64,000 bases of DNA, from assembly GCA_963718565.1 (NCBI GenBank), contig OY970364.1, forward strand, positions 1,504,001 to 1,568,000, read 5' to 3'. This document shows, piece after piece, positions 33,114 to 35,541 of this stretch (position 1 is its first letter; each line of letters begins with the position of its first letter). Source of the DNA: an uncultured Verrucomicrobiae bacterium. GTDB lineage: Bacteria > Chlamydiota > Chlamydiia > Chlamydiales > Rhabdochlamydiaceae. The position numbers and the translations under genes were made by a program. The notes under the pieces are model-generated. The model worked only from the letters and a program-made list of their open reading frames with translations, did not search any database and was not told where the DNA came from.

Positions 33114-33717
33114 AAGAAGATTTACAACGACAAGTCCATATGTTAGAAATTTACTGCTCTGCAAAAGGATGGGTGTTTTCAGTAACCAAAGACCTCGGTT
33201 CCGGGATGAACTATAATAAACAGCGCCGCTTCCTCACTCTCGAATTACCCGAAGCACATCTCCTCAAAGACAAAACCCCACGCAACTTGCGCATTATCTC
33301 CGAACTGGGAACCTACTATGCCATTTTTACCATTCAGAAAGAACTCCCCATCCGAAAACCCATTTCTAAAATCCTCGCACTCGATCCCAATCACAAAAAT
33401 CTCGCCTATGGTGTTGACACAAGTGGAACAGCCATTGAGATTGCATCTCCTCACTGGCTCAAAACTTACGATAAACGCCTGGACGAACTAAAAAGTAAAA
33501 GAGACCGCTGTGATAAAAAATCTAAAAAATTCCATGTTCTGGATGAAAAAGGCAATCCCACAAGAAAAGAATTCCATCTTCCTTCCAGGCAATGGAGAAA
33601 ATACGATCATGCCCTAAAAAGCGCACTGCGTAAACGCCGAGAACAGACCAAGACGTTTATGTTTACAAGCGCACATCGCCTTTTCCGAAATTACGACTGC
33701 ATTGGAATCGGAGACTA

Positions 33718-34837
33718 TACTCTAGAAAATTGAAGTCTGGAGAGGATTGAGTTCAATTGTTTGGAAATTGTCGTTAATTCGCTTTTTCAGCATGTCTTTT
33801 AAATTAATAACGCCAGTGTTGAAAAAATCTCTAATTTTCTCAGTAAATTCATTGAATTTTGAATACAGTGTATTATAAGTAACACACTCTCTCATAACTT
33901 TCCATAAACGCTCAATAGCATTCAAATTTGGGGAATACGGAGGTAAGTAGTGTATTTGAATTTTGGTTTGGCTATCCAAATATTTTTGCACTTCCTTATT
34001 CTTGTTTGATCTGCCGTTGTCTAAGATTAAGTGGATTTTTTTTGCATCTGTATTAGCCGCTAACGTTTGGAGAAAATCGACCGCACTTGCAGCATCCACA
34101 GTGCTATATTCCTTCGTCACGACTTGCATTGCAGTCAATTCAATGGCACCAATAAAATGCAATCGCTCTTGCTTAGCGGTTGTTCCTAATGTCTTTATTT
34201 CGTTTTTTAGGATCCACCCAGCCACAGACTGGCTCTGATACTCAGGGTGTACAGCATCTCCAAAGAAAATTTTCTCGCCTTCTTGGAGACCGGCTTTCAA
34301 TTCATTGTATTTTTTAAGGAACGCAGCTTGTTTTTCGGGATCGAGCTTTCCTGGTACTTTGATTGGATGTTTATAAACAAATCCATGCCTCTTCAACCAA
34401 TTTGTCATACCAGCCACAGTGTATTTCACTTGATATGCGTCTAGAACGTAGAGACAAATTTTGCTCATTTTGAGATACGTTATTTGACTCAAATGTCTCC
34501 TCAGCGCATCTTCTTGGTCTAGGGTTAACTTGGAGGCCTTTCCCAAATGTGGATCATTGATAGTTTTTTGCTTGGCATCGTATTCTCTTTGATAATCATA
34601 AACGGACGACTCGCTAATTCTTAAAATCGCCGCTATTTCCCCTGGACTGTGGCAATCATCCCTACCTAAAATGACGCATACACGGTTCCGTTCGTTGACA
34701 TCTCTTGTTTTTTTTACAAGCTGTTCTAAATATAAACGCTGCTCATTGGACAACTTTTGCATAGAAGCATTATCCACTATCGCTGAAATATTTTTTAGGG
34801 AAATTTAAAATTTTACAGAATCCAATCATGAATAGTA
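33718..34837 (-). mobile_element. IS630-family element, copy 2, inserted in tnpB
   Basis: TA duplication. Excision restores GAC-TAT-ACA-CCA. Confidence 0.93.
33722..34777 (-). CDS. IS630 transposase
   Basis: Identical to 27195-28250. Confidence 0.95.
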   Translation of the reverse strand: MDNASMQKLSNEQRLYLEQLVKKTRDVNERNRVCVILGRDDCHSPGEIAAILRISESSVYDYQREYDAKQKTINDPHLGKASKLTLDQEDALRRHLSQITYLKMSKICLYVLDAYQVKYTVAGMTNWLKRHGFVYKHPIKVPGKLDPEKQAAFLKKYNELKAGLQEGEKIFFGDAVHPEYQSQSVAGWILKNEIKTLGTTAKQERLHFIGAIELTAMQVVTKEYSTVDAASAVDFLQTLAANTDAKKIHLILDNGRSNKNKEVQKYLDSQTKIQIHYLPPYSPNLNAIERLWKVMRECVTYNTLYSKFNEFTEKIRDFFNTGVINLKDMLKKRINDNFQTIELNPLQTSIF

Positions 34838-35360
34838 TATACACCAAATGGCGAAGGCATTACTAAACCAATGCGGCGAGCGATGAATAATCGATCCTTG
34901 ATTGGACGTTGGAAAAACACCCTCTCCTGGGTAGCTCGAAAATCGGGAAAAACCTTTATTGAATTCGACGAGAAAGGGACAACCCGGACCTGTAGCCACT
35001 GCCTGCGGATTGAAGAGCGGGGAATCCCTGTCTCATTGAGACAATGACAATGTCCACAGTGCAAGACCGTTCACATTCGCGACGAGAATGCCGCAATTAA
35101 TGGCTTGAGAAAGATCTTGCGAGATCTTTCAGCAAAAAATGAAGGAGGATATCCTTCAATAGTGTCTGGCTCAGACCTCGCTTTTATCCAAAAGCGATGG
35201 GCCTGGTGTGTTTTGCCTAATGGTGTACATGTGACACCGTGGGGGCAAGACAGCAAAGCAATTTGCAGCACCAGGAAATTAAACCGAGGGCATGATAGCC
35301 CTCGATCAAAAGTTGATAATTTGGTTATATATGATCAGGTTTGATCAAGTTTTGAAGAGC

Positions 35361-35541
35361 GGAAAAATCTACCATCGCGGATTTTTGCCTCCATTTTGGT
35401 AGCCCAAGTCACAGCTCGCGCTTTTGTCGGAAATGTTTCAGATTTTTCCGGCATTCCTTTGATTCGAATGCGGACTCGATACATTTTTTTGGGTTTTTTA
35501 CCGGGTTCCGCCGGCAATTCTCTTTCTTCAATATATGCCAT
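35361..35541 (-). pseudogene. Phage/island tyrosine integrase N-terminal fragment truncated by IS607
   Basis: AGGAGG SD; YRVRIRIKGMPEKSETFPTKARAVTWATKMEAKI arm-binding-type N-terminus, next to the tRNA-Leu att scar. Confidence 0.7.

Follow-up and report, generated by a model that had tools for sequence, protein, structure and literature searches.

The question raised by positions 33105-35362 of the window, by which we mean the whole 64,000-nucleotide stretch of contig OY970364.1 analyzed here, is whether the TnpB nuclease of a broken IS607-family insertion sequence (IS) belongs to the lineage from which the Fanzor nucleases descend. A reading of the sequence alone had assigned this TnpB to a Fanzor-progenitor type, based on its rearranged RuvC active site and its pairing with an IS607 recombinase. 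The explanation that best accounts for all of the evidence, to which we give a probability of about 0.88, is that the locus is a dead IS607 copy whose TnpB belongs to an ordinary bacterial family with a relocated RuvC-II glutamate, in a clade apart from Fanzor2.

The wrecked copy and the element behind it

The locus holds a copy of an IS607-family insertion sequence, dead and rearranged, in the genome of an environmental chlamydia. Mapping by blastn on an intact copy (L001) reveals a 5' truncation at IS position 267, a 553-bp internal deletion that joins IS 383 to IS 937 at window 33221/33222, an IS630 insertion and a premature TGA, and places the right end at exactly 35362. The 5' truncation point is marked by an IS256/Mutator fragment that lies outside the IS607 element and is fused in frame to its remnant, such that the 319-residue open reading frame (ORF) at 32774-33733 is a chimera of an IS256/Mutator part, 39 serine-recombinase residues (the tnpA remnant translates as ...EDLQRQVHMLEIYCSAKGWVFSVTKDLGSGMNYNK) and the TnpB frame. 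This first stretch of TnpB ends in NYDCIGIGDYT, and the frame is picked up again at 34838 with YTPNGEG. The first segment carries LDPN at RuvC-I (33380-33391) and IGD at the canonical RuvC-II site (33707-33715); the second carries DEKGTTRTC (34967-34993), RDENAA at RuvC-III (35078-35095) and the zinc-finger CxxC pairs at 34991-35002 and 35051-35062. Window positions 34838-35362 (IS 1431-1955) differ from L001 at two of 525 bp, 34891 and 35047, and the G-to-A change at the latter converts a Trp codon, TGG, to TGA (35045-35047). The IS630 element within tnpB (33716-34839) matches another copy, at 27189-28312, with 100% identity across 1124 bp, a sign that IS630 has been active recently. The sequence-only reading had placed all four motifs correctly and was also right about the 5' loss, the IS630 insertion and the TGA at 35045; its start (33222) is exactly the junction of the deletion, and its end (35362) exactly the element's right end. 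An IS607 TnpA remnant is indeed present, but the claimed pairing with a serine recombinase is only loosely true of the window copy because a mere 117 bp of tnpA (33105-33221) are left. This copy would make no TnpB, and it could still supply guide RNA.

What did the element look like before it was broken? It had been guessed that intact copies might exist elsewhere, and they do: a search of the element's own genome (2.28 Mb, one contig) with the first TnpB segment returned 11 matches, of which 8 lie outside the window in open frames of 514-520 residues. The intact TnpB has 488 residues (494 in the copy with a cut right end), and all eight genes are open, with 0-5 substitutions each. Six of the other copies align with L001 over 1955-1959 bp at 99.4-99.8% identity, and the eighth copy, which lacks the last 31 bp, aligns over 1924 bp at 99.6% (blastn). 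The nine copies compared at their start read GGGGCTTG, except for one that reads GGGGCATG, and all eight copies whose right end was located finish with GAAGAGCGG (GAGCGG). Their flanks have nothing in common and show no target duplication. IS607 elements are described as having GG at both ends, no target duplication and a crossover at GG (PMC10711439); the present element likewise has GG at both ends without target-site duplication, and in L001 tnpB lies directly downstream of tnpA in the same direction, which is the IS607 arrangement.

The tnpA gene has a history of its own. In all eight tnpB-intact copies (L001, L003-L009) it carries one and the same in-frame deletion of 198 bp, by which 66 residues, including KDRLLRFG, are lost from the 206-residue form. 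The resulting 140-residue product keeps the helix-turn-helix and the Ser motif and matches Pfam MerR and Resolvase, the latter at positions 2-58 only. Resolvase matches in the genome number 14, and only two of IS607 type extend over model positions 2-137. An intact 206-residue tnpA is located at 26094-26714, on the minus strand, inside a further derivative of this element that also lies in the window; the tnpA product reaches 217 bits against NCBIfam NF033518 'IS607 family transposase' (cut-off 110). In this derivative tnpB is deleted from IS 489 to IS 1750, and its first codons and the last 206 nt, with the scaffold and the right end, are kept. The other intact IS607 tnpA is found at about 48.4 kb in the genome, where its neighbor is a truncated tnpB. 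Nowhere in the genome are the two genes intact in one and the same copy. The element survives here as complementary defective forms, namely eight copies with tnpB and scaffold and two tnpA-intact derivatives without a working tnpB. TnpA from these two derivatives could move the tnpA-deleted copies in trans by GG-GG crossover, and action in trans would likewise explain the spread of the tnpA-deleted form to at least eight copies. Among related loci of other genomes (tblastn), TnpA adjoins tnpB in 62 of 78 and is full length in 45, ending 4 nt past the tnpB start. The ancestral element is therefore reconstructed at ~2.15 kb, from GG/GGCTTG... to ...GAGC/GG, with both genes in the order 206-residue TnpA (a MerR-type helix-turn-helix and a resolvase domain) and 488-residue TnpB, overlapping by 4 nt.

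The active site and the guide-RNA scaffold

If the canonical RuvC-II glutamate is missing, what takes its place? The reference intact protein (P0001, 488 residues) scores 55.6 bits on Pfam PF07282, above the cut-off of 26.3. An AlphaFold model built on 45 relatives (60-92% identity) has a mean predicted local distance difference test (pLDDT) score of 80.1, and among PDB structures Foldseek ranks ISDra2 TnpB (8h1j, E 3e-17) first and the mimivirus Fanzor2 ApmFz2 (9b0l) 18th. Residues D210, P211, N212, G319, E365, C372, C375, C395 and D402 are invariant in the 45 relatives and C392 is nearly so, which provides both a D-E-D triad and a CxxC...CxxC zinc finger. The Gly of IGD (G319) falls on the RuvC-II Glu of ISDra2 TnpB in the phmmer alignment and on that of two canonical TnpBs ('GTEHL', 'CEDL') in the hhalign alignment. 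E365 stands six residues before the first CxxC (E365-KGTTRT-C372), as in Fanzors, and the invariant G319 and E365 are 46 residues apart, which is the residue pattern of a rearranged RuvC-II of the TnpB2 or RIIr-5 type, where Gly or Pro replaces the canonical Glu and a conserved compensating Glu follows about 45-50 residues downstream. Moreover, E365 aligns with Glu467 and D402 with Asp501 of ApmFz2, whose structure has the catalytic triad Asp324, Glu467 and Asp501 (PMC11832414). The two proposals made from the letters, that IGD replaces the canonical Glu and that an IS607-family TnpB carries this residue at a relocated site, are borne out by these alignments. In the model, E365 comes directly after strand 359-363, in agreement with the beta-5 position of the relocated Glu in rearranged TnpBs (PMC10691335). 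D320 of IGD was considered as a stand-in for the missing Glu and ruled out, since it is less than 90% conserved in the 45 relatives and E365 is invariant. The E467A substitution abolishes cleavage by ApmFz2, and TvTnpB is active with a rearrangement of this kind (PMC10530073); by analogy with both, the D210/E365/D402 triad would be catalytically active.

The pattern extends beyond the close relatives. A profile search of 50%-identity cluster representatives returned 6541 proteins at E<=0.001, and those of at least 340 residues among the best 150 formed a set of 68 distant representatives. G319 is found in 65 of them and E365 also in 65, D210, E365 and D402 occur together in 59, and RuvC-I reads DPN in 43 and DPG in 3. 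As aligned, the family signature is D-P-N-H-K-N at RuvC-I, Gly in place of the RuvC-II Glu, a Glu that precedes the zinc finger by six residues, and RDEN at RuvC-III.

A related question is whether the element specifies a guide RNA. Because it ends only 18 bp past the tnpB stop, a right-end RNA must overlap tnpB. For 27 loci, drawn from many phyla and anchored at the conserved terminal G[AG]AGAGCGG, the final 200 nt were aligned, and RNAalifold predicts 40 pairs in six helices, with compensatory changes in 35 of the 40. Paired cells amount to 89.4% as observed versus 41-50% when the partner is slid by 1-3 columns, the covariation score is 0.573 versus 0.11-0.15 under the same displacement, and none of 500 shuffles reached any observed measure. 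An extra hairpin where the alignment begins was recognized by eye only; it reads GTCTG-GCT-CAGAC, and another lineage has GCCCA-GCT-TGGGC. The Rfam scan of the intact copy gave only a chance match to snR50 (E 0.68), and so no described RNA family covers the scaffold. Deletion derivatives with unlike left breakpoints (IS 489 in the window, IS 651 at 1.19 Mb) both retain the last 204-206 nt, and the scaffold of the wrecked copy shows zero differences from the intact element. We regard the right end as a predicted structured guide-RNA scaffold that is well supported by covariation. Contigs from two metatranscriptome runs match portions of the element at 88-99%, such as a 171-nt contig over L001 2194-2364; they were rejected as evidence of transcription, since the libraries may contain DNA and the contigs show neither ends nor strand. 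In the proposed mechanism, TnpB with an RNA reading from the scaffold into the right flank would cut emptied donor sites, and a cut beside a G-containing motif that includes the GG core would favor retention of the element.

Distribution and relation to Fanzors

The chlamydial host that had been proposed is confirmed by the RpoA protein of the window, which is closest to Chlamydiota and Rhabdochlamydiaceae proteins (79-86% identity), and by the chlamydial titles of the closest TnpB loci. Of the 130 candidate stretches in a genome-contig scan for relatives, 102 were confirmed, and the scan yielded 78 loci. Those of at least 63% identity are mostly titled Chlamydiae, Chlamydiales, Rhabdochlamydia or Parachlamydiales, with some from Verrucomicrobiae, Acidobacteriota and Oligoflexia. 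Those of 39-61% identity comprise two metagenome-assembled genomes (MAGs) of Waddliaceae (53-54%) and loci of Chloroflexota, Bacillota (Clostridium, Bacillus aerolatus), Pseudomonadota, Ignavibacteriota and Acidobacteriota, together with one MAG labelled as a Methanobacteriota archaeon. The last of these (L085, 52% identity) has a full TnpA and the conserved right end on a 119-kb contig, and reflects either cross-domain transfer or a binning error. Within its own phylum the family is patchy, with a match at E<=1e-20 in 13 of 301 sampled genomes, this one counted; Chlamydiae have been listed among the TnpB-poor phyla (PMC10691335). In the open-licence literature, no paper was found that ties chlamydial IS607 or TnpB elements to Fanzors.

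Does the relocated glutamate make this TnpB a Fanzor ancestor? The published Fanzor fingerprint consists of DPG at RuvC-I and an alternative Glu that stands six residues ahead of the zinc finger; cyanobacterial IS607 TnpBs with both features were named 'pro-Fanzors' (PMC10711439). The chlamydial protein has the alternative Glu and the expected spacings, but at RuvC-I it has DPN instead of DPG, and N212 is invariant in the 45 relatives. TnpBs in which the Glu has moved and Gly or Pro fills its former position are moreover widespread, in several prokaryotic clades (PMC10691335, PMC10530073). Both search regular expressions of PMC10711439 need G at +2 from the RuvC-I Asp, such that the DPN family would be passed over. 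Tables S1 and S5 of that paper do list a close homologue and a Metabacillus relative, though with no pro-Fanzor label. The cyanobacterial pro-Fanzors printed in its supplement are ~350 residues long and read ALDPGxRTF...LPTFETS...NESYTSKTC, which does not resemble the DPN family.

The phylogeny points the same way. The Fanzor2-like set consisted of a Megavirus protein from a 1.26-Mb viral contig and its relatives, including those of Cotonvirus, mamavirus and Megavirus courdo11. A FastTree tree of 155 rows and an IQ-TREE tree of 59 rows (39 DPN, 18 Fanzor2-like and two canonical TnpBs as outgroup) were built; proteins under 380-400 residues, the pseudogenised loci L068, L077 and L089, and every second Fanzor2-like row were left out. 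In the IQ-TREE result the DPN family forms one clade, with a Shimodaira-Hasegawa-like approximate likelihood-ratio (SH-aLRT) support of 100 and a stem of 1.19, and the Fanzor2-like proteins form another (99, stem 0.81); the FastTree result gives the same picture. Within the DPN clade, Bacillota branch off first, and the chlamydial rows sit at the tips. A constraint that unites the chlamydial with the Fanzor2-like rows lowers the log-likelihood by 143.6 units and is rejected by the approximately unbiased (AU) test (p-AU 4.8e-5). The family is shown to be a clade of its own, apart from the giant-virus Fanzor2-like proteins, and the grouping anticipated by the sequence-only reading, for which it had suggested a phylogeny, is found in neither tree. 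Three metagenomic proteins (P0135, P0137, P0142) with DPG at RuvC-I and the alternative Glu are nested in the DPN clade, which indicates that Asn-to-Gly changes also occur there; they were not found in the supplement tables of PMC10711439, of which the first ~400 characters of each cell were covered. As placed in these trees, the published Fanzor fingerprint occurs outside the Fanzor clade.

Profile comparisons were no kinder to a special link. By hhalign, the family profile scores 114.8 (20% identity) against the Fanzor2-like set versus 124.8 (30% identity) against canonical TnpB. Among PDB chains it scores 56.4 bits against ApmFz2, 53.5 bits against ISDra2 TnpB and 80.3 bits against an AI-designed nuclease that aligns like ISDra2 TnpB, and no Fanzor1 chain was found at E<=1 in this search. 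A scan of viral contigs with family motifs, a weak test given its narrow patterns, yielded 52 pattern matches and no confirmed relative, and a single-protein scan with the Megavirus Fanzor2-like protein found only itself. The claimed Fanzor-progenitor type is upheld as to an IS607 TnpB with a relocated Glu; beyond that it is not supported, given DPN instead of DPG, the separate clade and profile scores that are not nearer to Fanzor2. On present evidence, the family is not specially close to Fanzors.

Two further hypotheses would retain a link to eukaryotes. One is that, among free-living bacteria, the DPN IS607 family is the closest sister group to Fanzors and pro-Fanzors taken as one clade, that a single ancient relocation of the Glu was inherited by both, that the family was overlooked because the searches need Gly, and that amoeba-associated chlamydiae offered one route to eukaryotes or giant viruses. 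We hold this scenario to be very unlikely. The other hypothesis, which we likewise consider very unlikely, is that the chlamydial TnpB is itself of pro-Fanzor type, in a lineage ancestral to Fanzors, and that amoeba-dwelling chlamydiae carried it to eukaryotes or viruses. It can draw on the alternative Glu exactly six residues before CxxC and the published spacings (all except the G of DPG), on the alignment of E365 with the catalytic Glu467 of ApmFz2, on an IS607 TnpA and GG ends such as Fanzor2 elements have, on a chlamydial host, on published speculation that Fanzor2 came from bacteria taken up by amoebae (PMC10530073), and on the adjacency of the DPN and Fanzor2-like clades in the IQ-TREE tree, where only canonical TnpBs serve as outgroup. 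However, RuvC-I reads DPN, the printed pro-Fanzors look unlike this family, the members tabulated in PMC10711439 carry no pro-Fanzor label, and the AU test rejects a clade of chlamydial and Fanzor2-like rows. The chlamydial rows are also terminal twigs in a family of Bacillota, Chloroflexota, Acidobacteriota, Pseudomonadota and others, the profile scores no better for Fanzor2 than for canonical TnpB, ApmFz2 ranks only 18th in the Foldseek list, and 0 of the 52 viral pattern matches were confirmed. The least probable reading, that these TnpBs died catalytically with the loss of the canonical Glu and were co-opted for a regulatory or RNA-guided binding role, fits the Gly in 65 of 68 representatives and the inactivated, exapted TnpBs that have been described (PMC10691335), but is opposed by the invariance of D210, E365 and D402 in 45 relatives and their joint presence in 59 of 68 distant ones, by the essential role of the equivalent Glu in ApmFz2 (E467A) and the activity of TvTnpB (PMC10530073), and by the setting of the genes, which belong to elements that occur in several copies and have a transposase and conserved ends, as befits a working insertion sequence and not an exapted gene.

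The preferred explanation, an ordinary bacterial TnpB family with a relocated Glu, has points against it as well. P0001 scores 24.9 bits on Pfam PF01385 (OrfB_IS605), below the cut-off of 30.5. The left flanks have no common base before GGGG, and so a simple GGG target-adjacent motif (TAM), as in ISXfa1 and ApmFz2, does not follow. Nuclease activity, a TAM and mobilization in trans are all things that we infer. The group constrained in the AU test was chosen after the first tree had been seen, even though it corresponds to the hypothesis of the sequence-only reading. The tree covers the DPN family, the Fanzor2-like proteins and two canonical TnpBs as outgroup, to the exclusion of Fanzor1, the pro-Fanzors of cyanobacteria and the further rearranged clades in print; it shows separateness from the Fanzor2-like proteins and not a place among all TnpBs, and long branches meet at its base, as a program warning indicated.

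What follows from an ordinary family with an unusual active site? First, a relocated Glu in an IS607 context is not enough to name a TnpB a Fanzor ancestor, which corrects an overstated link. Second, the D-P-N-H-K-N signature marks a large, widespread and so far uncharacterized TnpB family; the relocated-Glu active site itself has already been described, and the family would be skipped by the published searches for Fanzor ancestors for a technical reason. Third, a scaffold backed by covariation and natural intact copies offer a starting point for tests of the rearranged site, for example of a loss of collateral cleavage. Finally, the genome is a natural case, in a chlamydia, of an insertion sequence that persists as nuclease-plus-guide copies and transposase-only copies.

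Neighborhood and comparison with known systems

The wrecked copy lies in a part of the window (32774-42000) that is dense in insertion sequences, among them the IS256/Mutator fragment, the IS607 wreck, IS630 and others (Table 1). The HigB-like ORF is followed by a 377-residue protein with HTH_3 and Peptidase_M78 (ImmA/IrrE-like) domains, such that the two form a toxin-antitoxin-like pair (36210-37673). The 68-residue ORF at the right end may be the remnant of a gene hit by the IS607 insertion. A tRNA search at 35000-36500, as a test for a tRNA-linked island, found none.

Table 1 Features of the IS607 locus and its surroundings, in window coordinates.
Feature	Position	Strand	Basis or remark
1018-residue ORF beside the 1087-residue ORF	13528-16584		no NCBIfam match
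1087-residue ORF	16727-19990	-	filamentous-haemagglutinin N-terminal (two-partner secretion) domain, TIGR01901, E 5.7e-17
0.89-kb derivative of the IS607 element, both ends kept	25877-26768	-	blastn and ORF list
IS256/Mutator-family transposase, N-terminal fragment	32774-33104	+	Pfam PF00872, E 3.5e-20, residues 25-146 of the 319-residue ORF
tnpA (serine recombinase) remnant, IS 267-383	33105-33221	+	blastn against intact element, 95.7% over 117 bp
tnpB segment 1, residues ~157-322, IS 937-1435	33222-33720	+	499 bp 100% identical to intact copy L001
IS630-family insertion splitting tnpB (transposase ORF 33722-34777)	33721-34837	-	Pfam DDE_3, E 2.4e-28, and HTH_33
tnpB segment 2, residues ~321-488 and stop (35342-35344)	34838-35344	+	Pfam PF07282 on both tnpB halves
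Predicted guide-RNA (omegaRNA/reRNA) scaffold, last ~200 nt	35163-35362	+	overlaps tnpB 3' end; ends ...GAAGAGCGG
68-residue ORF	35335-35541	-	no Pfam match; last codons reach into IS607 right end
HigB-like toxin ORF	36210-36524		PF05015, E 9e-10
IS66-family transposase	37811-39316	-
ISAs1-family transposase	39602-40870
IS630-family transposase, further one	40881-41912

Which known systems does the element resemble most? The closest are the TnpBs with a relocated Glu, described as 'TnpB2' by Jiang et al. 2023 (PMC10530073), with TvTnpB of Thermoplasma volcanium as an example, as the RIIr clades, above all RIIr-5, by Altae-Tran et al. 2023 (PMC10691335), and as alternative-Glu TnpBs in the Nucleic Acids Research 2023 paper of the Doudna laboratory (PMC10711439). 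Like these, the chlamydial protein has Gly at the canonical Glu, an alternative Glu ~46 residues downstream and six before the zinc finger, and a D...E...D triad, and it belongs to a mobile element with a right-end guide RNA, here a predicted one. Unlike them, its RuvC-I reads D-P-N-H-K-N, which is neither Asp-hydrophobic-Gly nor DPG; the likeness was drawn from the published descriptions of the clades.

As an IS607 element it is typical in that TnpA matches NF033518, tnpA and tnpB are codirectional and overlapping, GG stands at both ends without target duplication, and the predicted right-end RNA runs up to the GG. One such IS607 element is ISXfa1, whose TnpB and right-end RNA have been characterized (PMC10711439). 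The chlamydial element departs from the family in that no copy in the genome has both genes intact, and in a longer TnpB (488 residues) with a conserved C-terminal hairpin (RWAW) coded inside the guide-RNA region. With Fanzor2 (ApmFz2, PDB 9b0l) and the cyanobacterial pro-Fanzors it shares the position of the alternative Glu, RDENAA, the TTxTC entry to the zinc finger and the IS607 context. In contrast to Fanzor2, it falls in a separate clade with long stems between, has DPN where DPG or DLG is found, lacks the Fanzor2 N-terminal extension, and shares 20% identity in the profile alignment.

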